From: an uncultured Bacteroidales bacterium
Lineage (GTDB): Bacteria > Bacteroidota > Bacteroidia > Bacteroidales > ML635J-15
Reading direction: 5' to 3'
Length of the DNA stretch: 64,000 nucleotides
Assembly: GCA_964448235.1 (NCBI GenBank)
Contig: CAYUWD010000004.1
Coordinates: 4,878-68,877 of the forward strand
Part shown: positions 6,023-26,838 of the stretch, piece by piece
Layout: each line of letters starts with the position of its first letter
How positions within the stretch are numbered: position 1 is the stretch's first letter
Translations under genes and position numbers: made by a program
Notes under the pieces: model-generated
Databases searched by the model: none
The model's input: only the letters and a program-made list of their open reading frames with translations
What the model was told of the DNA's origin: nothing

Positions 6023-6042
6023 AGCTTTTTTATAACAAAAAA

Positions 6043-6077: not shown

Positions 6078-6090
6078 GTTATTGTATTTT

Positions 6091-6334
6091 ACTAAGTACA
6101 TGACAAAAAATTTTAATTGAGAAAATTAAACCTATTGATTTTTCACAAAAAGCCCGTTAGGGCTTAATATTTGTAACCCCAGACTACGAACAAGTTCTTG
6201 TCTGGGGATTACAAATGTATTTACACTATTTTTGGCGTATATCTTTGCTATAACTGAGGTACGAAGGTTTGCAAAAATTATGACAACCTTTAGCTCATGA
6301 GCTTGCGAATAAAAATTTTTGTCATGTACTGAGT
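6091..6334. repeat. MITE-like 244-bp intergenic element with terminal inverted repeats
   Basis: Left end actaagtacatgacaaaaaatttt (6091-6114) matches the reverse complement of the right end aaaaatttttgtcatgtactgagt (6311-6334). The core actNagtacatgacaaaaa matches 19 of 20. An internal 16-bp hairpin lies at 6169-6216. The right end (6292-6334) recurs perfectly, inverted, at 57114-57156. Confidence 0.55.
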
Positions 6335-6342
6335 GTATTTTA

Positions 6343-11247: not shown

Positions 11248-11503
11248 TTTAACCCGGATTATTCATGCGGTTAACTTTATGTAGCTGCAAGACGTCCAAC
11301 TCCACCGACATATCTTTATATTTACTCCCTTTGGTCGTGAGCTAAAGGTTCAAGGAGTTAGCAACGAAGCAGATGCATGAAGATAATCGCAAACAATACC
11401 CAGATTTGGGGTTCGTTTATTTTGAGGTATTTAAGCGTATGACATTGTGTAACAATACATTGCAAGCTAATATAATTAGTTGTGGTGAATAATTCGGGTT
11501 AAA
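11248..11503 (+). repeat. 256-bp intergenic element closed by an 18-bp inverted repeat (structured ncRNA or MITE candidate)
   Basis: tttaacccggattattca (11248-11265) pairs with tgaataattcgggttaaa (11486-11503). The single non-Watson-Crick position is G.U on the plus strand and C.A on the minus strand. The interior is visibly more GC-rich than its surroundings. The right arm overlaps the stop codon of the LuxR-type regulator. Confidence 0.4.
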
Positions 11504-12146
11504 CAACTACGAGTTTATTCTTAATAGCTTTAAACATTAAGCTAATTGTATTTTTACAATCAAACTTTGCAAATAGATTCGATTTATGCCCCACAATTGT
11601 TCTTTCGCTAACAAATAAAATATCTGCAATTTCCTTATTACTCAAACCTTCACAAACTAATTGTAATATTTCCTTTTCTCGTTTTGTAAGTTTAATATCT
11701 GTTTTTGTGTCTTTTTCTTCTTGACTAATCTGTCGTGTAAAAAAGTCGAAAAGCTCTTCACTGTAATAATTACCCCTGTTGTACACTGTTTGTATTGCCT
11801 TATTTAAAGTGTCTTTATTAATGTTTTTCATCAAAAAGCCCTTTACTCCTGCATCAATCATACTTTTAATATAATCGTTCTCATTAAACATTGTTAATGC
11901 AATAATTTTAAGGTCAGGATACTTTTCTAGAGCTTTAACTGTAGCATCAATACCATTCATTTCAGGCATTTGTATATCCATAAGTACAATATCCGGTTTA
12001 TTATCAACCAACAAATCCAAAAAATCTTTCCCATTTGAAGCCTCTGCAATAACTTTTACATATTTAATCTTACTTAAAACTAATTTTAACCCCTTTCGAA
12101 ATATTTCATGATCATCAACTAAAATTATTTTTATTCCATTTTCCAT
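11499..12146 (-). CDS. NarL/LuxR-family response regulator (receiver + HTH)
   Basis: The start was moved to MENGIKIILVDDHEIFRKG. Receiver Asp context VLMDIQMPEMNG. C-terminal LuxR HTH LTKREKEILQLVCEGLSNKEIADILFVSERTIVGHKSNLF. Confidence 0.85.
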   Translation of the reverse strand: MENGIKIILVDDHEIFRKGLKLVLSKIKYVKVIAEASNGKDFLDLLVDNKPDIVLMDIQMPEMNGIDATVKALEKYPDLKIIALTMFNENDYIKSMIDAGVKGFLMKNINKDTLNKAIQTVYNRGNYYSEELFDFFTRQISQEEKDTKTDIKLTKREKEILQLVCEGLSNKEIADILFVSERTIVGHKSNLFAKFDCKNTISLMFKAIKNKLVVV

Positions 12147-12212
12147 ATTATACCTTTTATGTATTAAATATAGCCTTCTCAAATATTGTAAATATCATTT
12201 AATAAATTGAGA

Positions 12213-14306
12213 TTATAGTTCTATACTTATATCAATTTTAAAACCCTTACCTATTGCACTTTCAAATTTATATGCCCCATTTATTGATTTTATTCTACTT
12301 ATTATATTTCGCAATCCCATTCCTTTATGTTCTAAAATCATTATTTGATCAATATCAAAACCAATCCCATCATCATCAAAATACATTATCACTTTATCAT
12401 TCGATTCTTCTAGAACAACATTAATATTTTTAGCATTAGCATGTTTTAAAGTATTATTAACTAATTCTGTAATTACTCTAAAAAGAATAAGCTCCATATT
12501 TTCATCTAAACGATTATCAAAATTAATTTTATCAAATCGGATATTAATTTTATTAGTTTTATTAACTTTTTCAAAAAAAGTATCTAAAGCATTTACTAAT
12601 CCATATTTAGAAATCGTCATTGGCATTAGATTATTTGATATTTCACGAATTGTACGGATTGATTCATCAATAATAGAATTAACTTCACCAACATATTCAT
12701 TTCTCTCGTCCAACTGAATAGAAGATGAATTTAATTCATTAACATATAATTTTATGGTAGACAATAAAGGTCCAACACTATCATGCATATCTTTTGCAAA
12801 TCGAGCTCTTTCTCTTTCTTCAGTTCTAATAACAGTACTTAATATTTCCTTTTCTGTTTCTTTTCTTAAAGTAATATTACGTGCAATACTTAAGAAAAGC
12901 TTTTCATTATTATAATCTATTAATCTAGAGATAATTTCAACTGCAATTTTTCTTCCATCCTTTGTTAAATGTTCCGATTCATATGTAAGAAAACCACTTT
13001 CTGATATTTTCTTTCTATTACTTCTTACTTGCATAGCATAAGAAGATGTCTTAATATCTGCAATTTTCATTTTTAGAAATTCTTCCTTTGTATATCCCAA
13101 ATTATTACAACTAGCCTGATTTACTTCGATAATATTTTCATCAATATCTGTAACAAAGATACTATCTCCTGCACTATTAAAAAGTTTACGAAAACGATCC
13201 TGTGATTGTTGTAATTTTTCAGTTGTTGATTGTAGTTGTTTTTTAGAAATATTAAGTTCTTTAAGATAATTATATATTCTATCAGCAGTAAGCAAATACA
13301 AGATTACCAACATCAAAATAATAGAACTAAAAGCAACAATAGATGATGTAAAAATTGTATTTCGAACAAACACTTTGTTTTCAGCCTTAATATCCAAAGT
13401 CGCAACAACAAACAATTCAAAATCTTCAAAATATCGACAAACAGCTAACTTTTCTACATTATTATATCTATAAGTAAATGGTTGTGTAACATTACTCACA
13501 ACAGTATTAAATAATACACTATCTTTCCAATTTTGACCGGCAATCTGGGGATGAACAATAATATTACCATTTTTATCAAAAACAACTGGATAACCAGTTT
13601 TTCCAATTTTTATATCTTCGAGTACAGATCTCAATTTTTTCAAATCTTTTTCCTGATTCCCCACATATAAAATCCCGACAATCTCATCCTTATACCAAAT
13701 AGGCTCGTATGCAGTTATATACCAATCATTTACTACATAAGCCCTTCCATAATAGATCTCTCCATTCTCAATTGCCTGTACTACAAGAGATGAATTTGAG
13801 ATATATGAATTAACAGCCCGACTACCATCAAGATTTAGTACATTTGTTGAAATTCGCACATAACCACTATCAACTTTCTGAAAAATAGTCGCTGTTCCTC
13901 CTAAAAGCGACTTAATACTATCAACAAACACAAAACTCTCGCTCAACAATTCTCCGTCTAGATACCATTCGTAGATATCTTCTTCATATGTTTGATTATT
14001 AACCTGATTTTTAATTTGAATCGGTTTCCTTTTTTTAGTAATATAAAAATCTTTGCCCATAAAATAATTATGTGCGACATTAAGATTTATCTTAACTTTT
14101 TCCAGCTTTAATTGCCTCTCTCTCTCAAACATTTTAGTAATTGTTTCTACTTCGAGAGTAAGGCTATTTTCAAGCTGTTCATTAAAAGTTCTAATAGAGC
14201 TATTTATAAATAATAATGTTACAATAGTTGTTATAATTATTATCAATGCCGCTATAGGTAAAAACAAACGAAGTTTTAATCTAATTCGCGACTCTCTATT
14301 ATTCAT
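12213..14306 (-). CDS. Sensor histidine kinase: extracytoplasmic Cache-like domain, PAS, HisKA_3, HATPase
   Basis: An N-terminal TM helix, a loop of about 280 aa, a second TM helix, a PAS region (FRKLFNSAGDSIFVTDIDENIIEVNQA), the HisKA_3 H-box ERARFAKDMHDSVGPLL, and an ATPase (NTLKHANA...DDGIGF...GMGLRN). Confidence 0.8.
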   Translation of the reverse strand: MNNRESRIRLKLRLFLPIAALIIIITTIVTLLFINSSIRTFNEQLENSLTLEVETITKMFERERQLKLEKVKINLNVAHNYFMGKDFYITKKRKPIQIKNQVNNQTYEEDIYEWYLDGELLSESFVFVDSIKSLLGGTATIFQKVDSGYVRISTNVLNLDGSRAVNSYISNSSLVVQAIENGEIYYGRAYVVNDWYITAYEPIWYKDEIVGILYVGNQEKDLKKLRSVLEDIKIGKTGYPVVFDKNGNIIVHPQIAGQNWKDSVLFNTVVSNVTQPFTYRYNNVEKLAVCRYFEDFELFVVATLDIKAENKVFVRNTIFTSSIVAFSSIILMLVILYLLTADRIYNYLKELNISKKQLQSTTEKLQQSQDRFRKLFNSAGDSIFVTDIDENIIEVNQASCNNLGYTKEEFLKMKIADIKTSSYAMQVRSNRKKISESGFLTYESEHLTKDGRKIAVEIISRLIDYNNEKLFLSIARNITLRKETEKEILSTVIRTEERERARFAKDMHDSVGPLLSTIKLYVNELNSSSIQLDERNEYVGEVNSIIDESIRTIREISNNLMPMTISKYGLVNALDTFFEKVNKTNKINIRFDKINFDNRLDENMELILFRVITELVNNTLKHANAKNINVVLEESNDKVIMYFDDDGIGFDIDQIMILEHKGMGLRNIISRIKSINGAYKFESAIGKGFKIDISIEL

Positions 14307-14384
14307 ATCACTACAAAAGTATTTATTGATTACAAATTTAATCTTTTTTAAGGAATAGAAATAAATAATGATGAACTTTTAAAA

Positions 14385-14421
14385 GAAACACGCAGCATAA
14401 AAACCAAATACCACGTGTTTC
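14385..14421 (-). terminator. Weak terminator-like hairpin downstream of hydF
   Basis: 8-bp stem gaaacacg / cgtgtttc with a 21-nt loop. On the minus strand it is followed by TTTTAAAAG, so the U-run is only short. Confidence 0.3.
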
Positions 14422-14448
14422 AATAAAGCTATTATTATATAACGTGAG

Positions 14449-15651
14449 CTATATACAATTAAAAATCTCTGTGACTCGTTTAAGAATCCCGTTTACTTTT
14501 GCAATAGTAAGTCCATAATTAGTAATTGGAATATTTTTACTTGTAAAATAATCAATTCTACTTTGGATCTGTTTAGCTGTTGCAACACAACCACCGCACT
14601 GAATCACTAAAGCATATTTATCCACAGTTTTAGGTATATTATCTACACCTGAACTAAATTCAAAAAAGAGTTTTTTTCCTGTATATTCTTGTAACCATTT
14701 TGGAATCTTATACCTGCCAATATCTTCGCAACTAATTTGATGAGTACATGATTCAAGAATTAATATATTGTCATTTTCTTTTAATGAATCAATTTTTTTT
14801 GTCCCTTCTATATATTTATTGATATCTCCTTTTAAGCGTGCAAACAAAATACTAAAACTAGTTAAAGCCCAATCTTTAGGTATATTTTGTTCTACATAAT
14901 CAAAAACCTGACTGTCAGTTACAGTTAAATCAGGTTTTATACCTAGTTTTAAAAAGTCACAAAGTTCTGTTTCTTTTACAGACATAAAAATACAATTTTT
15001 ATCTAGAATATCTCTCCAAGCCATAACTTGTGGTAAAATCATCCTACCCTCCGGAGCTTCAGAGTCTATTGGATTTACAAGTAACACTATATCCTTTGGC
15101 TTAATAATATCAGCAAATAGAGATGGTTTAACAAATGAACTTTCAGGTATTTTAGTTTTAATCGCCTCAATAATTTCTTCTCTATTTACAAAATTAACAG
15201 ATGAAAATTCCAAAACCTTTTCACTAGTCTCTTTTTTTATATCATTTATAGTATTTTCCTTAATAGAAGCAATATCAGATTTATTGTGTATAATAATATA
15301 AGGAATAGAAAACTCATTAAATTGTTTTATTTGATTTATCTCTATATCATCAAAAGAATTATCGGCAATCACTAAAACTGCCAAATCTATATTTTTAATT
15401 ACATTATTAGTTTTCTCAATTCGTTTTATCCCTAACACTCCTTCATCATCAATTCCTGCTGTATCAATCAATATTACAGGACCTATGCCAAATATCTCTG
15501 TGGTTTTTTTAACTGGATCTGTTGTAGTTCCCGGATAATCAGAAACGATTGCGACATCTTGACCAACTAGAGCATTGATAAATGAACTCTTACCATTATT
15601 CCTTTTGCCAAAAATTCCAATATGTGGTTTTAAATCATTTCCTCTTTTCAT
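14449..15651 (-). CDS. hydF: [FeFe]-hydrogenase maturation GTPase HydF
   Basis: P-loop GKRNNGKSSFINAL, DTAG, NKSD, and a C-terminal cluster-binding CTH...QCGGC pattern. Adjacent to hydG. Confidence 0.85.
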   Translation of the reverse strand: MKRGNDLKPHIGIFGKRNNGKSSFINALVGQDVAIVSDYPGTTTDPVKKTTEIFGIGPVILIDTAGIDDEGVLGIKRIEKTNNVIKNIDLAVLVIADNSFDDIEINQIKQFNEFSIPYIIIHNKSDIASIKENTINDIKKETSEKVLEFSSVNFVNREEIIEAIKTKIPESSFVKPSLFADIIKPKDIVLLVNPIDSEAPEGRMILPQVMAWRDILDKNCIFMSVKETELCDFLKLGIKPDLTVTDSQVFDYVEQNIPKDWALTSFSILFARLKGDINKYIEGTKKIDSLKENDNILILESCTHQISCEDIGRYKIPKWLQEYTGKKLFFEFSSGVDNIPKTVDKYALVIQCGGCVATAKQIQSRIDYFTSKNIPITNYGLTIAKVNGILKRVTEIFNCI

Positions 15652-15666
15652 AATTAAATTAGTTTT

Positions 15667-15853
15667 TTAAAAACACAAAATCCGAACAAAAGAGGGAGAT
15701 AATTTAGAAATAATATTAGGAGTTTTTTTGAGTATAGAAAAACTAAGGAGTTTTTGATATTTATAAAATTGTGCCTAAGCATTGAAATGAATTGATATTT
15801 TTGCACTATAATTATCATGTTTTCTATCTCTGTATCGGATTTTGTGTTTTTAA
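15667..15853. repeat. 187-bp element bounded by 19-bp perfect inverted repeats, in the hydG-hydF spacer
   Basis: ttaaaaacacaaaatccga (15667-15685) is the exact reverse complement of tcggattttgtgtttttaa (15835-15853). Confidence 0.6.
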
Positions 15854-15865
15854 AATGTTTATAAA

Positions 15866-17296
15866 TTAAAAATATAAATCTCTTTCACCATTTTTAATCC
15901 TATCTATTCGAGATTTAATCTCTTTTATGTCTCTGTACTTTTTAATATCTTCAAGATTTTTTTGAATAACTTCCCAGCCTTTTTGCGCTGTTGATTTCGG
16001 AGCATAATCAACAAGATACTCTGATAAAGTTAATATCGCATTTGCAGAACAGAATCTTTTAATAAAACCTGGTACTGAAAACTCCATAAAATGTTCTCCT
16101 GTCCTACCTAAACGATAACATGCAGTACAAAATGATGGCAAATAACCTTCATCTAACAATTCATCAATAACTTCATTTAGTGATCTATTATCATTTATTA
16201 GAAATTGTTCCTTATTCAGATTCTGATTTTTCTTAAATTTCTCTGCATAAGCTCCTATTTCAATTTTTGTTCCAGCATCAACCTGAGAGCAGCCATATTG
16301 TAAAACTTCTTTACGAATTTTTTCCGGTTCTCTGGCAGTTAATATCAAACCTGTATATGGTACAGCCAAACGTAATATTGCTACTATTCTAGTAAATTCT
16401 TCATCATTAACAATATGTTTATATTTTTCATTTTCATCATTTAGTGCTTTCTGAATTCTTGGAAAGGATATGGTATGAGGTCCGACATTATAGCAAGCTT
16501 CAAGATGATTTGTATGACGTACTAATGATAAAACTTCAAATCTCCAATCATCTAATCCAAACAAAGCTCCAATTCCAACATCATCAATACCAGCTTCCAT
16601 TGCTGTATCCAAGGAGGTAAGACGATAATTATAATCAGCCTTTTTACCTGATAGATGATACTCTTTATATGTTTCAGGATGATAAGTCTCCTGAAATATT
16701 TGAAATGTACCAATTCCAGCTTCTTTAACTTTTTTAAATCCATCAAAATCAAAAGGTGCAGCATTAATATTTACTCTTCGAATCTCTCCATTTCCATTCT
16801 TAATACTGTATACATGTTTTACAGTTTCTGCAATATAGTCAGCACTATAATTTTTGTGCTCACCAAATACCAAAATTAATCGTTTTTGACCATTTTGTTC
16901 AAGAGCAATAACATTTTCTTCTAATTCTTCAGGACTAAGCGTTATACGTGTGGCATTAGCATTTGAAGTTCTAAAGCCACAATACTTACAATTATTACTG
17001 CAAAGATTTCCAACATATAAGGGAGCAAACAAAACAATTCGATTACCATAAATTTTTTGCTTTAGCTCTTTAGCACCTTCTTTTATCAATTCGACAAATT
17101 CAGGCTTATCAGCTTGAACAAGCGTTGCAACTTCAGCTAAATTAAGCCTTTCCTTATTAAGAGATTTAGCAATTATTCTTTTTATCTCCTCTTCGGTAAG
17201 TTTTGCATGATTAATAAAGTCCCATATTTCCTCAGAATCTATAAATCTCTGGAGTGGTTTATCTTCTATCTTATATTTCTGTGGTTTAAAAATCAT
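15866..17296 (-). CDS. hydG: [FeFe]-hydrogenase radical-SAM maturase HydG
   Basis: Radical SAM motif CSNNCKYCGF, ThiH-like body, and a C-terminal CxxCx22C motif (SFCTACYRLGRTGEHFMEFSVPGFIKRFC). Confidence 0.85.
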   Translation of the reverse strand: MIFKPQKYKIEDKPLQRFIDSEEIWDFINHAKLTEEEIKRIIAKSLNKERLNLAEVATLVQADKPEFVELIKEGAKELKQKIYGNRIVLFAPLYVGNLCSNNCKYCGFRTSNANATRITLSPEELEENVIALEQNGQKRLILVFGEHKNYSADYIAETVKHVYSIKNGNGEIRRVNINAAPFDFDGFKKVKEAGIGTFQIFQETYHPETYKEYHLSGKKADYNYRLTSLDTAMEAGIDDVGIGALFGLDDWRFEVLSLVRHTNHLEACYNVGPHTISFPRIQKALNDENEKYKHIVNDEEFTRIVAILRLAVPYTGLILTAREPEKIRKEVLQYGCSQVDAGTKIEIGAYAEKFKKNQNLNKEQFLINDNRSLNEVIDELLDEGYLPSFCTACYRLGRTGEHFMEFSVPGFIKRFCSANAILTLSEYLVDYAPKSTAQKGWEVIQKNLEDIKKYRDIKEIKSRIDRIKNGERDLYF

Positions 17297-17317
17297 AGCT
17301 AAATATTTTACAATACA

Positions 17318-18454
17318 TTACTTTGTGTCATTATTAACTATAGGAAGATAAACAATAAATTTACTCCCAACATCAGGTTTACTATCAAGATGTATTCGTC
17401 CATTATTTAATTCAACCATTTTCTTTACAATTGATAAACCTAATCCGCTTCCAGTTACGTTTTTAGTTTTAGCATTTTTTATCCGAACAAATTCCTGAAA
17501 AAGATTTTCTTGTTCATCTATACTCATTCCTATCCCAGTATCTTCTACCGATATTTTTGCATAGCCATCATTTTCTATAATATCGACAAAAACTTCTCCA
17601 TCATCTTTATTGTATTTTACGGCATTAGACACCAAATTGTTTAAAATAATTTCAACTTCTTCTTTATCGGACTTAATCCAACAAGTTTTATTACCAGAAA
17701 TGTTTAATTTTACATGTTTTTGAATTGCGGCAGGCTCCATAGTTGCCATAGCAATTTTTGCAATCTCGACAACATCAACTTTAGATATTTCTCTATTCTT
17801 TTTTCCTGACTCAAGTTTAGTTAAATCCAAAAGATCAAATATCAAAGTACGCATACCTTTAATTCTCTCAATTGAACGATCAATCATAACCTTATAATCA
17901 TCTATAGAATCTCCAACTTGTTTATCCTGCATAATTTTTAGGTAACCTTCAATTGCATTTATAGGAGATTTTAACTCGTGAGAAAGAACAGAAAGAAACT
18001 GAAACCTTATTTCTTTTCCTTCTTTCTTCATTTTACGAGTCATCCTTTGTAAATAAAGACGTTTAGTAATATCTTCAATTGCAGATTTTAATTCCTGAGG
18101 AGTAAATGGTTTTGGAACAAAATTATATGCTCCATTATTAGTTGCTTTAACAGCAAGTTCTAATGATGCATAACTAGTAATCATCATCACTAATGCGTCA
18201 TATTGCTTTTTGTTTATATATTCCAAAACCTCAATCCCATCAATACCAGGCAATTTATTATCAAGTAAGATAATATCAACTTCATTATTTTCAACAATTT
18301 CTATAGCTCTTTCACCTGTTTCTGCTTCAATTAGTTTAAAATCGAAATCATCATTCAAGAAAGGATAACTAACAGTAAAGTTTCTCAAAATGCGTTGAAT
18401 TCCACTACGAATACCTGGTTCATCATCAACAATTAAAATCTTTAAAGTTTCCAT
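17318..18454 (-). CDS. Hybrid receiver-histidine kinase (N-terminal REC, HisKA, HATPase)
   Basis: REC region ILIVDDEPGIRSG...IILLDNKLPGIDG. H-box LSVLSHELKSPINAIEGY. ATPase boxes NLVSNAVKYN, DTGIGM, GSGLGLSIV. Confidence 0.85.
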   Translation of the reverse strand: METLKILIVDDEPGIRSGIQRILRNFTVSYPFLNDDFDFKLIEAETGERAIEIVENNEVDIILLDNKLPGIDGIEVLEYINKKQYDALVMMITSYASLELAVKATNNGAYNFVPKPFTPQELKSAIEDITKRLYLQRMTRKMKKEGKEIRFQFLSVLSHELKSPINAIEGYLKIMQDKQVGDSIDDYKVMIDRSIERIKGMRTLIFDLLDLTKLESGKKNREISKVDVVEIAKIAMATMEPAAIQKHVKLNISGNKTCWIKSDKEEVEIILNNLVSNAVKYNKDDGEVFVDIIENDGYAKISVEDTGIGMSIDEQENLFQEFVRIKNAKTKNVTGSGLGLSIVKKMVELNNGRIHLDSKPDVGSKFIVYLPIVNNDTK

Positions 18455-18456
18455 AA

Positions 18457-18855
18457 CTATACTTTTAAAAGTTTGTTTATTTCTCTATGTAATTGATCTG
18501 ATCTTATTCCTTTTTCAAGATAAAGATCTGCTTTTATCCATTTCCGTTCATCATCAGTATCAAGAGAAAACACCATTCCAGTATCAGCAGTTACAGCAGT
18601 AGCAAGAATAATAGGAACATCCGGATATTTATTCTTCATTTTATAACTAAGAATAAAACCACTATCTTTATTTTCCATCATTAAATCAACAATTGCTAAA
18701 TCTGGTTTTGTGTTTTCAATTATCTCTTCCCCTTCTTTTTGTCCATCTGCAATAATAGTATTAAATCCAAAACTCTCAACCTGAATTTTCAACTGATTTG
18801 CGTAATCTACATCATCATCTACAATTAAAATTGTCTTGTTCATCTTGTCTTTCAT
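18457..18855 (-). CDS. Stand-alone response-regulator receiver protein (CheY-like)
   Basis: 132 aa. ILIVDDDVDYANQL...LAIVDLMMEN...LEKG, with no output domain. Confidence 0.85.
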   Translation of the reverse strand: MKDKMNKTILIVDDDVDYANQLKIQVESFGFNTIIADGQKEGEEIIENTKPDLAIVDLMMENKDSGFILSYKMKNKYPDVPIILATAVTADTGMVFSLDTDDERKWIKADLYLEKGIRSDQLHREINKLLKV

Positions 18856-18885
18856 AATTATATATTTTTAAATTTATTCATTACA

Positions 18886-20865
18886 TTAATTCTTTGGAAT
18901 ATCAATAATAAAAGAGGTACCTGTAGGCCCATTTTCAGCTTTATCATTTGTAACAATATCTATTTTCCCATTATGCATTTTAACAATCCCATATACAAGT
19001 GGCAATCCCAAACCAGTTCCTTTACCCATTTCTTTAGTTGTAAAGAATGGAGTAAATAATTTTTCCATATTTTCTTTAGGGATACCCACACCAGTATCAG
19101 AAATAGTAATTTTAACTTTATCTTCAGTTTCCGATAATTTAACACCTAATATACCTCCTTTAGGCATAGCTTCAATAGCATTTTTTTCAAGATTTATAAG
19201 TACCTGCATCATCTGATCCTGATCAATCATTACAAAATAATCTGAAATTTCTAATTTAAGGTCGAGACTTATCTCTTCGGGTATTATAAGAGCTTCAAAA
19301 CTATGTTTAATAAAATCTCTAATATCTGTTTTTTGCTTTTTCACATTGTTCTTTCTGGCAAAATTCAATAAACCACCCACAATTTTTTTACATCTTGCTG
19401 TTTGTTCAACAATTAATTCCAAATCTTCATACATTGGGTCATTTTTTGCTACCTCCTCTTTGAGTATATTACTATACATTGTAATAACACCCAACGGATT
19501 ATTGATTTCATGTGCAATCCCAGCCGAAAGTTGTCCCATATTTGCCAGTTTTTCTGACTGTTTTAATGCTTGTCTTGCATCTGCCAAACTTTCATTTGAC
19601 TGATTCAATTCCTGTATAGATTTATGCAATTTCTCAATTGTGTATGGTAAACACATCTCAATTTCTGCCAATCCCTGTATTATAGCAATTGCATGCTCTC
19701 TACAGGTCGCATATCCACAAGCACCACAATCTAAATAATCAGATTTATCATGTTTACCCATATTTCTCAACACAGCTAAAATTTCTTTTTCGTCAGGTTG
19801 CACAACTCTTCTATCAAGAGGCTTAAAGGATTGTGATAAATCAATATTTTTAAATTCTTCAAATTCTTTTGACCATGCTTCATGATCAAAATCTCTGAAT
19901 TTTTGTTGAACATAATCCCTAATTTTAGTACGCTTAAGATATCTGTCATTTTTTTCAGTCATACCAGGTCCCATGATGCAACCTTTACAGCATAATAATT
20001 CCATATATTTACAATTAAGCTTACCATTCTCAAATTCAGAGATTATTTCTTTAAAATTATTTTGCCCTGAAGCATTAATAATTTCTCCCTCCATTATATT
20101 ATCAGTTTTGTTTATTGTTTGCAATAAACCTCTTGACACTGCAAGAACAGACCCTTTCCCTGCCTCAGGAGAATCAAACCTCATCATTTTACTATTTTCA
20201 GGCTTTATATTATACCTAGCAAATAGCTCTCTTAATTCTTTATATGTAATTACTTCGTCAACTTCATCAGATTCTGCTTTTTTGGCAATACAAGGTCCAA
20301 TAAATACAACTTTTACATCATTACCATATTTCTTTTTAACAACTCGACTTGTAGCTACCATCGGCGAAACTATAGGAGCAAGATTTTTAACTAAATAGGG
20401 ATGATAATGTTCAACATAAAAAACAATTGATGGACAATCAGATGATAAATAACTTACCCCATTATCATTTTCAATAAGTTCTTTATATTTTGGTGCTATT
20501 AAATCTGCTCCAAATCCTACTTCGACAACTTTTGCAAATCCTAATTTCTTAATCATACCAACCAAGTATTGGTAATCAGGAATTTCTGTAAATTCTGCAG
20601 GAAAACTAGGTGCAATAATAGCAATTACTTTATTTTCGGAACTTAGTAATTTTTCTGTGGCAGAGCTGCAATCAAGGAACACTTTTGCCCCCTGACTGCA
20701 GACTCTAACACAATTACCACAGCCTATACATTTCTCATTTATTATTTCAGCTTGGCCATTAATTATTCGAATAGCTTTGACTGGACACTCTCTCACACAA
20801 GTATAGCAAACACGACACTTATCCTTTACTGTAATTACTAAACTATTTCTTTTTATATGTCCCAT
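18886..20865 (-). CDS. Sensory [FeFe]-hydrogenase-like domain fused to a histidine kinase (candidate H2-sensing kinase)
   Basis: Two ferredoxin motifs (CRVCYTCVRECP and CIGCGNCVRVC). H-cluster-like motifs SSDCPS, GPCIAKKAE and CCKGCIMGPG. A Cx2Cx4Cx16C motif (CGACGYATCREHAIAIIQGLAEIEMC). A coiled coil, the H-box AHEINNPLG, and ATPase boxes NLEKNAIEAM, DTGVGI, GTGLGL. Confidence 0.8.
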   Translation of the reverse strand: MGHIKRNSLVITVKDKCRVCYTCVRECPVKAIRIINGQAEIINEKCIGCGNCVRVCSQGAKVFLDCSSATEKLLSSENKVIAIIAPSFPAEFTEIPDYQYLVGMIKKLGFAKVVEVGFGADLIAPKYKELIENDNGVSYLSSDCPSIVFYVEHYHPYLVKNLAPIVSPMVATSRVVKKKYGNDVKVVFIGPCIAKKAESDEVDEVITYKELRELFARYNIKPENSKMMRFDSPEAGKGSVLAVSRGLLQTINKTDNIMEGEIINASGQNNFKEIISEFENGKLNCKYMELLCCKGCIMGPGMTEKNDRYLKRTKIRDYVQQKFRDFDHEAWSKEFEEFKNIDLSQSFKPLDRRVVQPDEKEILAVLRNMGKHDKSDYLDCGACGYATCREHAIAIIQGLAEIEMCLPYTIEKLHKSIQELNQSNESLADARQALKQSEKLANMGQLSAGIAHEINNPLGVITMYSNILKEEVAKNDPMYEDLELIVEQTARCKKIVGGLLNFARKNNVKKQKTDIRDFIKHSFEALIIPEEISLDLKLEISDYFVMIDQDQMMQVLINLEKNAIEAMPKGGILGVKLSETEDKVKITISDTGVGIPKENMEKLFTPFFTTKEMGKGTGLGLPLVYGIVKMHNGKIDIVTNDKAENGPTGTSFIIDIPKN

Positions 20866-20896
20866 AATTAAATGTCCAACTTAATTTCAATTATAT

Positions 20897-22621
20897 TTAT
20901 TTCAACACCTTTCTTTGACAATACTCGGTATGCAATAAATCATGACTAACATGACTTAAAGGTTCACCTAAAAACTCTTTATATAATTCAATAATTTCCG
21001 GATTTGAGTGAGATGTTTTCACTTCCTCAGTTTTATCAATATTATATAGTAATTGCATTCTTGCCTTTAGTTGTTCTTCAGTAGTCCCAATATGCTGACC
21101 ACCACCATTAATACAACCTCCAGGGCAAGCCATTATTTCTATAAAATGGATATCTTTTCGCCCTTCACGTATTTCATCTAATAAGATACTCGCATTTTTT
21201 AATCCATTAACCACAGCAATTCCAAGTTCTAAATCACCAATTTTAACTTTTGTTTCTTTACGACCTTCAAGTCCTCTGATTTCATCTATTGTATAATTCT
21301 TCAGTTCTTCACCTGTAAGTTTAAAATATGCAGTACGTATAGCTGCCTCAGTCACACCACCACTTACACCAAACAATTTTCCTGCAGAACTTCTAAAACC
21401 ATGAGGAGAATCAGCTGCTTCGGGTTCAATATTATGAACATCCACCCCCATTGTTTTAACAAACTGACTAAATTCACGTGTAGTTAATACTGCATCTACG
21501 TCAGAATATCCATTTTTAGTCATTTCTTCTCTTTGAGCTTCGAATTTTTTTGCAGTACAAGGCATAATAGAAACCGAGTAAATATTTTCCGGTTTCACAT
21601 TACTAATTTTAGCCCAATATGATTTAATAACAGATCCTAACATTTGTTGTGGAGACTTACAAGAAGAAATATGCGGAAGCATATCAGGATAAAACTCTTC
21701 TGCAAATTTTATCCATGCAGGACAACAACTTGTCATCATAGGTAAAACTCCATTATTTGTAACCCTATGGATAAGTTCGGCAGACTCTTCCATAATAGTT
21801 AAATCGGCAGAGAATGAAGTATCAAAAACATAGTCAAATCCAATTTTACGAAGAGCAGTATTCATAATTCCATTTGCATCTGTTCCTGCTTTCATATTAA
21901 ACTCTTCAGCTAAAGATACAGATATTGCAGGAGCATATTGCACAACTACTACTTTTTTAGGATCATTTAGTGCTAACTGAATCTCACCAAAGTGATTTTT
22001 CTCACTTAAAGCACCTGTAGGGCAAACAACAACACACTGTCCACAATTTACACAACTTGAAGTATTTAAACCTTTATTAAAAGCTGTACCAATGACAGAT
22101 TTACTTCCCCTATTTATAATATCAATAGCAGAAACACCCATCATTTCTTCACAAACTCTCACACATCTTTCACACAAAATACACTTATTAGGATCCCGCA
22201 CAATACTAGGGCTAGAACGATCCATGTGATAATCATTTTTTATTCCAATGATTCTTCTTTCTCTTACATTTAAGTCTTCTGCTAACTTTTGTAATTCACA
22301 ATTCCCATTTCTAGAACAATACAAACAATCATCCGGATGATTTGAAAGCAATAATTCTACAATAGTTTTTCGTGCTTCGATAACACGAGGAGAATGAGAT
22401 TTAATTTTCATCCCATCTTCAACTGGTTGTGAACACGAAGGTATAAGACGACCAGTTTTTTCATTTTCCACAACACAGATTCGACATGCTCCCGTTGGAA
22501 AAGAATCCTTTAAATGACAAAGCGTTGGGACTTTTATCCCATTCCTTGTTAATGCGTCAAGAACAGTTTCACCTTTAACTGCTTCAACCTTTTTATTATT
22601 TATTTCAATGTAAATACTCAT
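20897..22621 (-). CDS. hydA: [FeFe]-hydrogenase catalytic subunit HydA (multi-FeS, NuoG-like N-terminus)
   Basis: Canonical H-cluster motifs TSCCPAW, MPCTAKKFE and EIMACPGGCINGGG. N-terminal 2Fe-2S and 4Fe-4S Cys motifs. The ATG at 22621 (MSIYIEINNKKV) is preferred over the TTG at 22630 used by the track. Confidence 0.9.
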   Translation of the reverse strand: MSIYIEINNKKVEAVKGETVLDALTRNGIKVPTLCHLKDSFPTGACRICVVENEKTGRLIPSCSQPVEDGMKIKSHSPRVIEARKTIVELLLSNHPDDCLYCSRNGNCELQKLAEDLNVRERRIIGIKNDYHMDRSSPSIVRDPNKCILCERCVRVCEEMMGVSAIDIINRGSKSVIGTAFNKGLNTSSCVNCGQCVVVCPTGALSEKNHFGEIQLALNDPKKVVVVQYAPAISVSLAEEFNMKAGTDANGIMNTALRKIGFDYVFDTSFSADLTIMEESAELIHRVTNNGVLPMMTSCCPAWIKFAEEFYPDMLPHISSCKSPQQMLGSVIKSYWAKISNVKPENIYSVSIMPCTAKKFEAQREEMTKNGYSDVDAVLTTREFSQFVKTMGVDVHNIEPEAADSPHGFRSSAGKLFGVSGGVTEAAIRTAYFKLTGEELKNYTIDEIRGLEGRKETKVKIGDLELGIAVVNGLKNASILLDEIREGRKDIHFIEIMACPGGCINGGGQHIGTTEEQLKARMQLLYNIDKTEEVKTSHSNPEIIELYKEFLGEPLSHVSHDLLHTEYCQRKVLK

Positions 22622-22638
22622 GATAATCAAATTAAATA

Positions 22639-24588
22639 TTAGACAATTTCAATTGCATTAAATTTACAAGCCTCAGCGCAAGTCCCACATCCGATACACT
22701 TATCTTCAACAATAAAATGAGGAGTTTTCTTTGCACCAATAATTGCACCTGTTGGACATTTCTTCGCACAAACAGTACAGCCTGTACATGCATCCACATT
22801 AATTTTAAATACTCTCAAATTAGTACAAACACCAGCAGGACATTTTTTATCATATATATGCGCATCATACTCATCTTTAAAATATCGCAAAGTACTCAAT
22901 ACAGGATTTGGAGCTGACTGTCCTAATCCACAAAGAGATGTTTCTTTTATTACTTTTGCTAATTTTTCTAGCTGTATTACACTTTTAAATCTATCTAAAG
23001 CTTCGTTTCCTTTTGGATTTGTAGGTTTAGATGTAATACTTTCAAGAATTTCAAGCATTCTTTTTGTTCCTTCACGACAAGGTATGCATTTACCACAAGA
23101 TTCTCTTTGTATAAAATCCATAAAGAACTTAGCAACATCAACCATACATGTATCTTCATCCATTACAACCATGCCACCAGATCCCATCATAGCTCCCACT
23201 TCTAATAATGAATCATAATCTATAGGAATATCTAAGTTTTGTTTAGTAATACACCCTCCTGATGGTCCACCAATTTGTACTGCTTTAAATTCTTTACCAT
23301 TTGGAATTCCTCCGGCAATATCAAAAAGGACTTCACGAATTTTGGTTCCAATAGGAATTTCAACTAATCCAGTCAAACTTATTTTTCCAGACAAAGCAAA
23401 TACTTTTGTCCCTTTGCTTTTTTCTGTACCAATAGTTATAAATTCATCTTTCCCCATTTCCATAATACCAGGGATATTTGATAATGTTTCTACATTATTT
23501 ATCACAGTTGGTTTTCCAAAAAGGCCACTTGTTGTTGGAAATGGAGGTCGAGGTCTTGGCATTCCTCTTTTACCCTCAATACTATGAATAAGAGCTGTTT
23601 CTTCTCCACAAACAAAAGCCCCTGCACCCATTTTAACTTTAATATTAAAATCAATACCAGTATTAAAAATATTCTCACCCAACAAACCATACTCTTCAGC
23701 TTGTTTTATAGCAATTTTTAATCTATCAATTGCCAAAGGATATTCGGCTCGAATATATACATATGCCTTGGTTGCTTCGATAGCATATGCTGCAATTACC
23801 ATTCCTTCAATTAACCTATGAGGGTCTCCTTCAATAACAGCTCTATCCATAAACGCTCCAGGATCACCTTCGTCAGCATTACAAATTAAATATTTTTGAT
23901 CACTTTTTTCTTTATTTGCAAATTTCCATTTCATTCCTGTCGGAAAACCTCCACCACCACGACCACGTAAACCAGAATCTAAAATAATCTGACAAACTTC
24001 TTCACTTTTATAATTCCCAATAACTTTAATGATATTTTTATAGCCTCCCCTTGCAATATACTCATTAATACTAACCGGATCAACAACTCCACAATTCTTA
24101 AGAACAATTCTTTTTTGCTTCACAAAAAATGGATGTTCATTAATATCTCTTATCCCTTCCCATTCTTTACTATTTTGATTCTTAAATTGACCTAAAATAT
24201 CTTTTTCAGGTAATTTAAAATTAAATACATCATCTAATAAAGTATCAACTTTATCTTCTGTAACATGTTCAAAAGAAATTCTGTTATAACCAGGCAATTG
24301 CACATCTAATATTGGTTCTGATGAACATAAACCAATACAGCCTGTCTTTATAATTCGCCCATTAATGTTGTGATCTTTTAGATATGTTTCAACTTTCTCA
24401 AATGTTTTACCAGCCCCTGCTCCTAAACCGCAAGTACCTGTTCCAACATATAAAATAGGTTCATCTGTTAATACATTTTTATAACGAGATATTTTATCAA
24501 TCAATTGATCATCTTTTGAATTTGATGAATAATCTCTCAAAACCTCATCTACAAAAAATTCCTTTTCTATATTTGTACTTTTTTCCAT
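22639..24588 (-). CDS. hydB: NuoF-like flavoprotein subunit HydB of the hydrogenase
   Basis: FMN/NADH site GRGGGGFPTGMKW, N3 cluster ESCGKCIPCREG, N-terminal thioredoxin-like 2Fe-2S region, and a C-terminal 2x[4Fe-4S] region (CTGCTVCAKKCP and CIGCGTCAEAC). Confidence 0.9.
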   Translation of the reverse strand: MEKSTNIEKEFFVDEVLRDYSSNSKDDQLIDKISRYKNVLTDEPILYVGTGTCGLGAGAGKTFEKVETYLKDHNINGRIIKTGCIGLCSSEPILDVQLPGYNRISFEHVTEDKVDTLLDDVFNFKLPEKDILGQFKNQNSKEWEGIRDINEHPFFVKQKRIVLKNCGVVDPVSINEYIARGGYKNIIKVIGNYKSEEVCQIILDSGLRGRGGGGFPTGMKWKFANKEKSDQKYLICNADEGDPGAFMDRAVIEGDPHRLIEGMVIAAYAIEATKAYVYIRAEYPLAIDRLKIAIKQAEEYGLLGENIFNTGIDFNIKVKMGAGAFVCGEETALIHSIEGKRGMPRPRPPFPTTSGLFGKPTVINNVETLSNIPGIMEMGKDEFITIGTEKSKGTKVFALSGKISLTGLVEIPIGTKIREVLFDIAGGIPNGKEFKAVQIGGPSGGCITKQNLDIPIDYDSLLEVGAMMGSGGMVVMDEDTCMVDVAKFFMDFIQRESCGKCIPCREGTKRMLEILESITSKPTNPKGNEALDRFKSVIQLEKLAKVIKETSLCGLGQSAPNPVLSTLRYFKDEYDAHIYDKKCPAGVCTNLRVFKINVDACTGCTVCAKKCPTGAIIGAKKTPHFIVEDKCIGCGTCAEACKFNAIEIV

Positions 24589-24590
24589 AA

Positions 24591-25055
24591 TTAATCGGCT
24601 TTATTTCTATAGTTTTCTACAATACCCTTAATTGATTCCTTTGTTACTTTAGCATGAAAGTTCCCATTTACACATATTACAGGAGCCAACCCGCATGCTC
24701 CAATACAAGCTACAACTTCTATACTAAACATCTTGTCTTTTGTTGTATCTCCAGCTTTTATTTCCAATATTTTCTCCAACTCCTCCAACACTGTTGCAGA
24801 CCCTAAAACATGACATGCTGTTCCTCTACAAACCTGTATGTGATATTTACCCTGAGGCTTAAATCTAAATTGATTGTAGAAGGTTGCTACTCCATAAATT
24901 TTACTTGTGGGCATATTTAAATATTCGCCTACTTCTACAATCAATTCCTCTGATAAATACCCATTAGCTTCTTGCACATCCTGTAAAATTGGAATCAGAT
25001 TATCCTGACTAGCTGTTGGATACTTTGAAAAAACATCTTTTACTTTTGCTTCCAT
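24591..25055 (-). CDS. hydC: NuoE-like [2Fe-2S] subunit HydC of the hydrogenase
   Basis: CRGTACHVLG...CIGACGLAPV pattern and a size of 154 aa. Confidence 0.9.
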   Translation of the reverse strand: MEAKVKDVFSKYPTASQDNLIPILQDVQEANGYLSEELIVEVGEYLNMPTSKIYGVATFYNQFRFKPQGKYHIQVCRGTACHVLGSATVLEELEKILEIKAGDTTKDKMFSIEVVACIGACGLAPVICVNGNFHAKVTKESIKGIVENYRNKAD

Positions 25056-25076
25056 AATTATTATTTATTTTTTTAT

Positions 25077-25107
25077 AAGTAAGTAGCAGATAAACTGCTA
25101 CTTACTT
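25077..25107 (-). promoter_or_regulatory. 13-bp perfect hairpin between the leading receiver gene and hydC
   Basis: aagtaagtagcag (25077-25089) / ctgctacttactt (25095-25107) with a 5-nt loop. On the transcribed minus strand no U-run follows, so it is not a canonical terminator. Confidence 0.45.
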
Positions 25108-25114
25108 AATAATA

Positions 25115-25612
25115 TTATTTTAATAACCTTTTAACTTCTGGTAATAGCTTATCAGCACTTGTAGGTTTTGCTAAGAAACCACCTACAGGAAATAATATTG
25201 ATTTACCATCTTGAGTTCTATAATCAATTGCTGCTGTCCCATCTGTAATGTTTTTCACAAGTAGTACTTGTAAATCTTTATAATTCGGATCTTTTCTAAA
25301 CTCTCTTGCCATATCCACCACTGATGCTTTTGTTGTAGTTAATACATCTATAGAAGTTTGCATTAAAAATGGAATATCCTTTAAATCAGGATTGTTATAC
25401 ATTTCATTTGCAAGTTCAAATCCCTCATAATGAGTAGTCATCATTACATCCAAAATAGCTAGATTTGGCTTTTCGTTTCTTAATAATTCAATACCTTCTT
25501 CTTTACTTGATGCTGAAATCACTTCGTAGCCCTCTTTTGTTAAGATAGCATTAACAACGTTTATTACATCAATGTCGTCGTCTACGATTAAAATTTTCTT
25601 TGTTGTTTCCAT
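25115..25612 (-). CDS. Stand-alone receiver protein with an atypically long beta4-beta5 region
   Basis: ILIVDDDIDVINV...LAILDVMM...LMQTS...FLAKP. About 60 residues separate the conserved Ser/Thr position from the Lys-Pro, far more than in ordinary receivers. There is no output domain. Confidence 0.75.
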   Translation of the reverse strand: METTKKILIVDDDIDVINVVNAILTKEGYEVISASSKEEGIELLRNEKPNLAILDVMMTTHYEGFELANEMYNNPDLKDIPFLMQTSIDVLTTTKASVVDMAREFRKDPNYKDLQVLLVKNITDGTAAIDYRTQDGKSILFPVGGFLAKPTSADKLLPEVKRLLK

Positions 25613-26118
25613 AACTCATAATTTTTTATTGTTAGTAATTGTGTTTAATAATCTTTTAAAGAACCTTGATATTGTAAAGGTAATTCAACACAACAATTAA
25701 AAACAGGTAGGGTTTTCCCTTTTTAATACGATAAAATCAAGAAGGAATACTCACAAAAACCAGTAAAAAAAGGAAGGGTTTTAATAGTAAAATATTACTA
25801 TACAAAAACACAAACAAATCATAACAACCTAGGATAGTGACTTTTAAGAAATAAATAAACAAATATTATATTACATATTATTTTACCGTTATTTAATTAA
25901 CAGTAGATTCCTAAAAATTATCAAAAAAGAAAATTTATGCTTTTTTAAACTTGAATTAATTATATCTATTTCTTCCAGACAAACGCTTTTAGCTTTGAAA
26001 TAAATTCGGAATTTACTCTTTGTGTAGTAAATGCTATTGTCTATTTTGCAACTCAAAATATTTAATAAAATATCTATTTATCAATAATTATTGTACAGTA
26101 TTACCCACTAAACCAATT

Positions 26119-26838
26119 CTAGATATCATAAAACTTACAATTTTCATACTTACATTCCTTATTATCTAAATTAAAATTGCATACAAAATCACGCATTAGT
26201 ATAGTAGTGTTTAGATATTTTTTCATGAAGTTAACAGCAGTTTCAATTGCAATAAAAGTATTTCTTTTACAACATCTTGGTCCACCTGCATTTGCAATAT
26301 TATTAAGTGTTTCTGAAGTAATTTTATTTGCTAAAGAATATTCTTTTTCAGAAACAGGTGTAGCATTTAAAATGATACTCATAAAAATCCCATTTCCTAT
26401 TCCTGCTCCACAAGCTCCATAAAACCCACAAAAACCTCCTAAAACATTTGCTGCCCTCTTTCTGGCTTTTTTTAAAGCTCCTTTTAGTTTTTCTGATTGT
26501 CCATTTAGAGAATAAATAGTTGTCAACAATACCGCAGGCACAAGAAAATGATGCTCTGGGCCATGCATATTAATTGATTTATGCCTTAATATTTGTGAAA
26601 TAATTTCGAAAGGAGATTCCAATTTAGTATTTAAACAAAATTGTTCGATAAAATCATATGCATTCATTTGATGACATTGATCACAGATAAAATGACCATT
26701 CACACAATTAGCATTAGAATCATACTTATTACCACAAACACTACAAATCATTTCGTTAGAATTTGTATAATACTTTAAATCCTCACCACATATTAAACAA
26801 CCAAAGTTTGACATACTTTTTATTGTAAAATTATTCAA
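26119..26838 (-). CDS. Cys-rich protein: N-terminal zinc-ribbon-like CxxC pairs plus a GCAxxG-type motif
   Basis: CLICGEDL...CSVCGNKY...CVNGHFICDQCHQ, then GGFCGFYGACGAGIGNG and further Cys residues (GPRCC, C..N.DNKEC.YENC). No radical-SAM CxxxCxxC motif. Confidence 0.5.
   Translation of the reverse strand: MNNFTIKSMSNFGCLICGEDLKYYTNSNEMICSVCGNKYDSNANCVNGHFICDQCHQMNAYDFIEQFCLNTKLESPFEIISQILRHKSINMHGPEHHFLVPAVLLTTIYSLNGQSEKLKGALKKARKRAANVLGGFCGFYGACGAGIGNGIFMSIILNATPVSEKEYSLANKITSETLNNIANAGGPRCCKRNTFIAIETAVNFMKKYLNTTILMRDFVCNFNLDNKECKYENCKFYDI

Follow-up and report, generated by a model that had tools for sequence, protein, structure and literature searches.

A hydrogenase island of uncultured Bacteroidales with a putative kinase-fused [FeFe] sensory hydrogenase inside the HydABC operon

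The window analysed here is a 64-kb stretch of contig CAYUWD010000004.1 from an uncultured Bacteroidales bacterium, in which eleven minus-strand genes for an [FeFe] hydrogenase, two of its maturases and a group of two-component signalling proteins lie together (Table 1). Judged by gene order and homology, uncultured Bacteroidales share a conserved hydrogenase island, of which this block is one copy. The block would encode a hydrogen- or redox-responsive kinase cascade inside the operon of the bifurcating hydrogenase HydABC, with a NarL/LuxR-type regulator (LuxR) as the probable transcriptional read-out in this lineage and a Cache-domain kinase as a second input, a composite reading to which we give about even chances. 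The cascade would begin with a hydrogenase-histidine kinase fusion (HydS-kinase) and involve two stand-alone receivers, REC132 and REC165, and a receiver-histidine kinase (REC-HK).

Gene content and conservation of the island

Genes were taken from a list of open reading frames (ORFs) and domains from Pfam and NCBIfam scans, which reproduced all eleven genes and domains claimed in an initial annotation of the sequence, as well as its tally of three kinases, four receivers and a single DNA-binding domain. The catalytic residues are all present (His452, His159 and His508 in the kinases; Asp55, Asp57, Asp65 and Asp57 in the receivers): every receiver has an acidic pocket, a phospho-acceptor Asp and a conserved Lys, and the kinases have an H-box His and an ATPase domain. 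From LuxR to REC165 the intergenic gaps are 30, 142, 214, 21, 2, 30, 31, 8, 2 and 59 bp, and the claimed spacing of 2–31 bp over positions 25055–15866 held when recomputed.

The structural genes are well supported by homology as those of an electron-bifurcating HydABC of group A3, which bears out the earlier "bifurcating-type" label. HydA scores above the cut-off of NF040763, the NCBIfam model of NADH-dependent [FeFe] hydrogenase, carries the canonical motifs TSCCP, MPC and EIMACPGGC, and has as its best Protein Data Bank (PDB) match 8a6t_A ("Electron bifurcating hydrogenase subunit HydA1", 585 bits). HydB matches over its full length the B subunits of solved bifurcating complexes (7q4v_B, 8a6t_B and 9n5u_B) and has the extra C-terminal 2x[4Fe-4S] region (Fer4 at residues 595–648). 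HydC scores above the cut-offs of the NuoE-family models NF005722 and TIGR01958 and, at 151 bits, below the cut-off of 224 for HoxE. All three subunits match solved bifurcating complexes from end to end, and their genes are contiguous, with gaps of 8 and 2 bp.

A search with a profile built from 18 homologs identified relatives in 577 or more species-representative genomes. We analysed 80 loci with 10-kb flanks, called ORFs in all of them and assigned these to window proteins by BLASTP; counts use the loci with enough flank. HydC-HydB-HydA precedes the sensor kinase in 70 of 71 loci, and the sensor kinase is followed by REC132 in 71 of 72 and by REC-HK in all 72. The initial annotation had made its proposal depend on the signalling genes being conserved beside hydABC, and this is what the relatives show. 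The same gene order occurs in at least 70 species-level genomes, at 57–78% protein identity and with operon-like spacing, and such recurrence in dozens of species places the layout far beyond chance. All close homologs come from Bacteroidales metagenome-assembled genomes, and the window also encodes SprB-repeat and Por_Secre_tail proteins; it is clearly Bacteroidota DNA. Maturase genes follow downstream in some loci (hydG in 37, hydF in 29 and hydE in 26 of 59). We found no hydE in the block or in the whole window; in the closest relatives it lies within hydG-hydF-hydE, directly before the Cache kinase (L002, 17023–18105; L081, 16791–17873), and in the window it has either been lost from this position (gap 14307–14448) or relocated elsewhere in the genome. 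Locus L081, on a 4.05-Mb contig and at 69% identity, has the window's exact order plus hydE and an OsmC gene. The OsmC-family (peroxiredoxin-like) gene, not in the window, lies between REC132 and REC-HK in the nearest complete relatives, L002 (12629–13066) and L081 (12520–12957).

Around the invariant core the loci fall into two types. In type 1, to which the window belongs, REC165 heads the operon (39 of 69 loci), often with LuxR and with or without the Cache kinase. Type-2 loci, among whose carriers are Draconibacterium and Prolixibacteraceae relatives, are without REC165 and LuxR. In their place they have a divergent HydS paralog of the classical, kinase-less form and, after it, a gene for a SpoIIE/PP2C phosphatase; the classical HydS is upstream in 28 of the 63 loci with enough upstream flank, and the PP2C gene is present in 25. 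A rex gene immediately follows REC-HK in 29 loci (type 2), and ribF follows it in 26. A search across the window for rex, a PP2C gene or a second HydS returned none. In type 2, two putative sensory hydrogenases flank one HydABC operon, the kinase-fused form downstream (L007, L024, L025, L028, L034, L036, L040, L048, L049, L052 and others).

Table 1. Features of the hydrogenase island and its surroundings (positions in the 64-kb window)
Feature	Position	Strand	Evidence or remark
LuxR: NarL/LuxR-type regulator, REC (Asp57) + GerE helix-turn-helix (HTH)	11499-12146(12182)	minus	Pfam, NCBIfam
Cache kinase: transmembrane segment, Cache_3-Cache_2, transmembrane segment, PAS, HisKA_3 (His508), HATPase	12213-14306	minus	Pfam; PF17201 203 bits
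Two TAnnTTTG boxes (TAAATTTG, TACTTTTG)	14314-14340	minus	just upstream of Cache kinase
14-bp stem-loop + UUUU, terminator-like	14385-14421	minus	after hydF; z = -2.95
HydF maturase	14449-15651	minus	TIGR03918 485 bits vs cut-off 326
HydG maturase	15866-17296	minus	TIGR03955 502 bits vs cut-off 312
REC-HK: REC-HisKA-HATPase (Asp65, His159), without other sensor domain	17318-18454	minus	Pfam, NCBIfam
REC132: stand-alone receiver, 132 aa (Asp57, Lys115)	18457-18855	minus	Pfam
HydS-kinase fusion: 2x[4Fe-4S] + Fe_hyd_lg_C + FeS (PF04060) + HisKA (His452) + HATPase	18886-20865	minus	Pfam
HydA: catalytic [FeFe] subunit	20897-22630	minus	NF040763 821 bits vs cut-off 765; probable ATG 22621
HydB: NuoF-like FMN/NADH subunit, C-terminal 2x[4Fe-4S]	22639-24588	minus	Pfam; PDB matches
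HydC: NuoE-like [2Fe-2S] subunit	24591-25055	minus	PF01257 1.1e-52
Stem-loop, 13-14 perfect pairs, no U-run	25077-25107	minus	REC165/hydC junction; dG -20.2 kcal/mol, z = -7.1
REC165: stand-alone receiver, 165 aa (Asp55, Lys149)	25115-25612	minus	Pfam; first gene of unit
Likely -7 box TACCTTTAC, Bacteroidetes TAnnTTTG-like, for REC165 + hyd genes	25674-25682	minus
Second upstream element AAAAAGGGAAAACCCTACCTG	25704-25724	minus	by-eye alignment of upstream regions
Motif A, ACCCTTCC-N6-TTACTGGTTTTT	25755-25779	minus	~150 nt before REC165 start codon
DUF5714 protein, cysteine-rich, N-terminal zinc-ribbon-like motifs	26119-26838	minus	506 bp upstream of REC165
dnaA	30506-31933	minus	~5 kb upstream of block

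The HydS-kinase fusion, its candidate partners and LuxR

By its motifs and domain order, the fusion is a HydS-type (group C) [FeFe] hydrogenase domain joined directly to a histidine-kinase transmitter. Aligned to HydA, its three active-site motifs read SSD143C144P for TSCCP (P1), G190PC192 for MPC (P2) and ELL291CC293KGC296 for EIMACPGGC (P3). The H-cluster cysteine ligands C144, C192, C293 and C296 are intact, and are kept in 119–120 of the best 120 homologs, whereas three second-sphere, non-ligand positions (numbered as in the enzyme CpI) are changed: C299 to Asp143, M353 to Gly190 and M497 to Leu291. A Cx2Cx4Cx16C motif (C380, C383, C388 and C405) is present in 120/120 of the same homologs, and [ST]SDCP, with Asp at the CpI Cys299 position, in 119/120. 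Retained cluster ligands, altered C299/M353/M497, an N-terminal ferredoxin domain and a C-terminal four-Cys motif are the hallmarks of sensory HydS proteins (PMC8163306, PMC10055695). Pfam detects no PAS domain in the fusion, HisKA coming right after the four-Cys motif, and it therefore does not belong to the Thermotoga maritima HydS (TmHydS) subtype (M2f, or C3-type HydS); no transmembrane segment was found in it either. A predicted helix runs from Cys405, about 47 residues before His452, into the DHp domain. With HisKA and HATPase on the same polypeptide, the fusion fits, by architecture, HydDB group C1 in its sense of histidine kinase-linked.

The Asp at the proton-relay position sets the fusion apart from the residues reported for group C at C299, which are Cys in 17%, Ala in about 43%, Pro and Ser in about 10% each, "etc.", with Asp unmentioned (PMC10055695). 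In prototypical enzymes Asp is the sole replacement of the proton-relay Cys that preserves activity (PMC10055695), and the sensor domain may thus still turn over H2 and not merely bind it.

From gene content, catalytic residues and neighbourhood conservation we infer hydrogen sensing, each phosphotransfer step and the DNA target as follows. H2, or a redox poise set by H2, would reduce the sensor's H-cluster and its Fe-S chain, including the C-terminal four-Cys cluster (Cys405), and this reduction would alter autophosphorylation of the sensor kinase. The phosphoryl group would then move within the invariant core of sensor kinase, REC132 and REC-HK and, in the window's lineage, be read out through REC165, at the head of the operon, and LuxR. 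LuxR would also be fed by the neighbouring Cache-PAS HisKA_3 kinase, probably an extracytoplasmic small-molecule sensor, and would exert feedback at the conserved promoter region that precedes REC165-hydCBA. Pfam finds no Hpt domain in any protein of the block, and the layout is consequently not a classical His-Asp-His-Asp phosphorelay and looks instead like a cascade of kinase and receiver-kinase. The multi-step or branched relay suggested in the initial annotation is partly supported, in that the signalling genes are conserved and LuxR is linked to them even without the Cache kinase.

Type-1 and type-2 loci hardly differ in the DHp helices of the two core kinases, whose partners are therefore probably the same in both types and would be the universally present receivers, REC132 and the receiver of REC-HK. 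Because the helices are almost invariant, they gave no covariation signal from which partners could be predicted.

REC165 differs from an ordinary receiver by a conserved insert of about 55–57 extra residues between strand 4 and strand 5, in the stretch between the conserved Ser87 and Lys149. Its AlphaFold model (pLDDT 92.7) has a receiver fold to which one helix and four strands are added as a beta-rich subdomain, and its alignment to PDB entries is split into residues 4–87 and 145–164; none of the solved PDB receivers spans the insert, only the core being matched (TMq ~0.6). The family comprises 958 proteins, of which the best 120 are nearly all about 165 aa long, and those with a named source are from Bacteroidota. 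In the model the insert replaces the alpha4 region, part of the usual receiver output face, which makes a protein-protein output by REC165 plausible.

LuxR is the only DNA-binding protein in the block and, as the window carries neither rex nor a Rex box, also the one local candidate for binding DNA. It adjoins, across the 30-bp gap, the HisKA_3 kinase (PF07730), and this REC + GerE-HTH regulator (PF00196) and kinase have the layout of a NarX/NarL-type pair. The best NCBIfam match of the Cache kinase, MctS, is far below its cut-off, and with the MctS/MctR and NarL equivalog models all far below theirs no named system applies to the pair. LuxR is nearby in 19 of the 28 fully covered type-1 loci and in 19 of 46 fully covered loci overall, as against the universal three-gene core, and is thus not the general output of that core.

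In the lineages that have it, LuxR nevertheless keeps company with the hydrogenase genes. In 25 type-1 loci an ortholog is linked to the cluster, and six of these loci have no Cache kinase. Five arrangements of the Cache-kinase/LuxR pair, or of LuxR without the kinase, occur at the cluster: upstream in the same direction, upstream but divergent, right behind REC-HK, behind hydE, and LuxR by itself. In L029, L031, L039, L047 and L077 a LuxR ortholog (53–63% identity) lies immediately upstream of REC165, and a peptidase, transporter, GldD, RlmN or glycosylase gene occupies the place where the kinase would be. L037 and the independent assembly L082 have REC165, HydS-kinase, REC-HK and LuxR in this order and without intervening genes, and no Cache kinase, HydABC or REC132. 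In a neighbour-joining tree the Cache-less LuxR proteins nest inside the Cache-linked ones, and their receiver phospho-acceptor residues are conserved. That LuxR is retained beside the hydrogenase signalling genes in loci without the Cache kinase agrees with a relay whose end point is LuxR, and this gene neighbourhood favours LuxR as output of the hydrogen-sensing branch. It is also the best support for the suggestion that H2 and extracytoplasmic inputs may converge. One sub-clade has an extra small receiver of 134–184 aa between LuxR and REC165, nearest to the LuxR receiver half and without an HTH (L010, 4673–5104; L004, L008, L012, L013, L015, L021, L041, L050 and L061), which brings the receiver domains of those loci to five.

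Upstream elements and transcription units

Three conserved elements precede REC165. Motif A, scored as GTACTGGTTTT with at most one mismatch, occurs upstream of the operon in 11 of 39 type-1 loci, 0 of 28 type-2 loci and 1 of 400 control windows; its restriction to the LuxR-bearing locus type was counted in favour of a LuxR output, and LuxR is a candidate for binding it. The second element, which in relatives reads GAAAAYCAGKAC...CACCTG and is inverted relative to motif A, was found at the same tolerance in 18/39 type-1 loci, 1/28 type-2 loci and 22/400 controls. At the position matching the likely -7 box, relatives have TACCTTTAC, TACTTTTAC or TAATTTTGC; TAnnTTTG is the -7 consensus of Bacteroides promoters. 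The architecture conserved across relatives can be written as CCTTCC-N6-GTACTGGTTTTT, an inverted AAAAYCAGKAC...CACCTG and a TAnnTTT box; it is also seen in L002, L003, L009, L014, L019, L022, L032, L046, L077 and L081, and its first element forms a full palindrome, AACCAGTA-N5/6-TACTGGTT, in L017, L022, L032 and L038.

The initial annotation had taken the stretch from hydC to hydG as one transcript, and this is plausible given gaps of 2–31 bp with no terminator-like site in them. At the REC165/hydC junction many relatives also have hairpins, some with a U-run and some of them canonical terminators, and the window's hairpin there could set the ratio of regulator to enzyme transcript. A terminator-like hairpin follows hydF, and after it come the two boxes TAAATTTG and TACTTTTG, to which exact TAnnTTTG matches in the block's intergenic DNA are confined, so that the Cache kinase and LuxR most likely form their own transcription unit. 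Generic scans for sigma-70 promoters and terminators gave counts equal to the shuffled expectation and are uninformative for a Bacteroidota genome; a combined -33/-7 Bacteroidetes pattern was at chance. Rfam searches of the block and the whole window and a tRNA search gave nothing above threshold.

Many relatives appear to use a different control. Rex-controlled hydrogenase operons are known, with the Rex box TTGTGAANNNNTTCACAA (PMC6391272), and we searched with the pattern TTGTKAA-N4-WTMACAA, taken from the consensus in the same source, at up to one mismatch. The relatives' loci contain 63 matches, 58 of them outside matched genes, and 51 of these 58 lie just upstream of the operon's first gene or of the divergent HydS. 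Such palindromes are present in 16/39 type-1 loci, 15/28 type-2 loci and 4/400 control windows. The type-1 sites lie before REC165 or, in one sub-clade, before the small receiver gene that precedes it, and never between REC165 and hydC, a placement which argues that the operon promoter is upstream of REC165 and that the REC165/hydC hairpin is read through. The 18-bp palindromes (loci between L009 and L080) often occur as two per promoter around the -7 box. Many relatives thus resemble known Rex-controlled operons, with one or two promoter palindromes and, in type 2, rex after REC-HK. The window does not: no Rex box was found between 25613 and 26118 even with two mismatches, matches over the whole window are at chance level, and the window's closest relatives have none. 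Across the family, one bifurcating hydrogenase may be under the combined control of hydrogen, an external ligand and, through Rex, NADH.

Alternative readings and known systems

The same genes could form two insulated systems, namely a closed relay of sensor kinase, REC132 and REC-HK, with REC165, and an ordinary two-component system of Cache kinase and LuxR. The relay would then act through direct contact of a single-domain receiver with another protein, which might be HydABC, while the Cache kinase and LuxR would have their own signal and control of the hyd promoter by LuxR would be optional. Several lines of evidence point this way and weigh against LuxR as the end of the cascade. The core triad is universal and LuxR is not, being absent within 10 kb in all type-2 and about 9 of 28 fully covered type-1 loci. 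The core-kinase DHp helices are alike in loci with and without LuxR or REC165, which suggests REC132, and not LuxR or REC165, as the partner of REC-HK. In the window, the hairpin and promoter boxes ahead of the Cache kinase set it and LuxR most likely apart as a separate unit. HisKA_3 kinases normally pair with NarL-type regulators, and the two could be such a canonical, self-contained pair. The insertion on the alpha4-beta5 face of REC165 and the apparent use of Rex boxes by many relatives to regulate the operon fit insulation as well, and motif A is also present in type-1 loci without a visible LuxR, so that the motif-LuxR link is weak and the correlation does not discriminate. Insulation has difficulty, however, with two or more independent lineages in which the Cache kinase was lost while LuxR, its residues for phosphorylation still in place, kept its position next to the hydrogenase signalling genes, and with the pair moving along with the cluster through five rearrangements. 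We consider it the main rival, possible though doubtful.

A further alternative concerns the fusion itself, which may sense the redox state of the ferredoxin or NADH pool through its Fe-S clusters, or be an active accessory subunit of HydABC whose kinase reports turnover. Asp143 occupies the proton-relay position and may allow H2 turnover, the N-terminal 2x[4Fe-4S] domain is ferredoxin-like, group C3 of Hydrogenedentota has been treated as the "T" subunit of a complex (PMC11406978), and a metabolic role for C1 has been raised in Cloacimonadota (PMC8542988). Against this, the fusion departs from CpI at the Met353 and Met497 equivalents in the manner of characterised low-activity sensory enzymes, a complete transmitter is fused and receivers always follow it, and the compact L037/L082 module has no adjoining HydABC; on balance this alternative seems quite unlikely. 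An AlphaFold model of the fusion, in which we looked for Cys405 and the DHp His on one helix, was not used as evidence (mean pLDDT 67); its low confidence in the cluster-to-kinase linker (below 50 at residues 399–457) is a point against the proposed coupling. That the adjacency is incidental, the signalling genes serving distant targets, is already contradicted by the recurrence of the gene order and is scarcely credible. A bolder form of the LuxR-terminated cascade, rather unlikely when all its parts are taken jointly, would make sensor kinase, REC-HK and LuxR the first [FeFe]-based two-component hydrogen sensor, with L037/L082 as its minimal form; it would parallel the [NiFe] HoxBC-HoxJ-HoxA system in function and have an independent evolutionary origin. 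REC132 and REC165 would be sink or connector, and REC165 would act directly on HydABC through its unprecedented insert on the output face. H2 would then control both synthesis and activity of the bifurcating hydrogenase.

In the [NiFe] systems HoxBC-HoxJ-HoxA and HupUV-HupT-HupR, a hydrogenase-like sensor governs a histidine kinase and a response regulator and thereby hydrogenase expression, a logic that matches the cascade proposed here. They differ from the window in an unrelated metal centre, separate sensor and kinase, an NtrC-type regulator and hosts that are aerobic H2 oxidisers and not fermenters. Closer in chemistry are the HydS proteins of T. maritima (group C, M2f) and Ruminococcus albus (HydS with PP2C), which share with the fusion the 2x[4Fe-4S] domain, an H-domain changed at C299/M353/M497 and the Cx2Cx4Cx16C motif; TmHydS also has Gly at the M353 position. 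Both are co-encoded with hydrogenases, T. maritima HydS in the same operon and R. albus HydS with a ferredoxin-only hydrogenase and an alcohol dehydrogenase. They have Ala where the fusion has Asp at the C299 position, and they end in PAS and presumably signal via a serine/threonine phosphatase, whereas in the fusion HisKA/HATPase directly follows the four-Cys motif. In the window's type-2 relatives both sensor kinds, classical HydS and kinase fusion, occur at one locus. HydS of Thermoanaerobacter mathranii (group D, M2e) shares with the fusion the lack of PAS, Leu at the M497 position and a setting next to a trimeric bifurcating hydrogenase, upstream of which it is encoded, with a transcription factor and a kinase-like ATPase on its flanks (PMC8163306). 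The kinase-like ATPase is a protein of its own there, the regulator is AraC-type, and Ser replaces the window's Gly at M353.

The class to which we assign the fusion is an established one: HydDB lists group C1 as "histidine kinase-linked" putative sensory [FeFe] hydrogenases. C1 genes beside kinases or group A3 hydrogenases have been reported in Firmicutes, Cloacimonadota, Hydrogenedentota, where they adjoin group A3 genes (PMC11406978), and the Bacteroidota member Petrimonas mucosa, whose C1 gene ING2E5A_0849 lies near the bifurcating HndABCD (PMC7768429). The initial annotation's remark that no such circuit had been described in Bacteroidota therefore holds in part: the class and the Petrimonas case are on record, and the partner receivers and the circuit were not found in the literature searched. 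The known C1 examples share with the window an H-cluster protein with histidine-kinase function beside group A3, in one case from the same phylum, proposed as an H2 sensor, but the invariant REC132 and REC-HK, REC165 and the LuxR link are absent from their descriptions, and H-cluster motifs that are intact in the fusion are hard to find in the Hydrogenedentota proteins. Co-encoding of sensory with other hydrogenases is a standard idea (PMC6776011, PMC12578642). We found no demonstration of signalling by a sensory [FeFe] hydrogenase in the literature (PMC6776011, PMC12578642, PMC10055695), and the surveyed work on C1 and sensory hydrogenases describes neither the receivers conserved here nor the two accessory types nor the link to LuxR. 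On the signalling side, REC-HK has the REC-HisKA-HATPase architecture of Leptospira LvrB (PDB 8vc9), and stand-alone receivers between kinases are a feature of multi-kinase networks such as LvrA/LvrB, Myxococcus RedCDEF and Caulobacter DivJ/PleC-DivK; FixL-FixJ offers a HisKA kinase that directly serves a LuxR-type regulator. Homology to all of these is limited to shared domains, and the window differs in having no Hpt protein and in partner relations that are putative.

In anaerobes of the gut, the rumen and sediments, putative sensory [FeFe] hydrogenases abound, and they are assumed to balance H2 production against other fermentation routes. With the class already catalogued, the existence of the cluster will not surprise a specialist, and the new content lies in the comparative map, Asp143, the REC165 insert and the upstream elements. 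The map narrows the partners to an invariant three-gene core, two alternative accessory sets and a LuxR kept without the Cache kinase. Characterised sensory hydrogenases end in PAS, whereas the Bacteroidales form has a standard histidine kinase fused and few conserved candidate partners adjacent, which makes H2-dependent autophosphorylation and phosphotransfer directly measurable by routine assays and offers a testable route to how [FeFe] sensory hydrogenases signal.

Outside the island, the DUF5714 gene was considered as part of the system and rejected; it adjoins the cluster in 0 of 80 relatives and, its neighbourhood being unconserved, is not counted. The island may lie near the replication origin, dnaA being followed by a low-GC (26%) stretch at 32–36 kb; no clear GC-skew switch was seen. 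In L083 an NAD-reducing [NiFe] hydrogenase set (HoxF/U/Y/H-like, 1970–6535) is divergent from REC165-hydCBA, which places two soluble NAD-linked hydrogenases on one intergenic control region.

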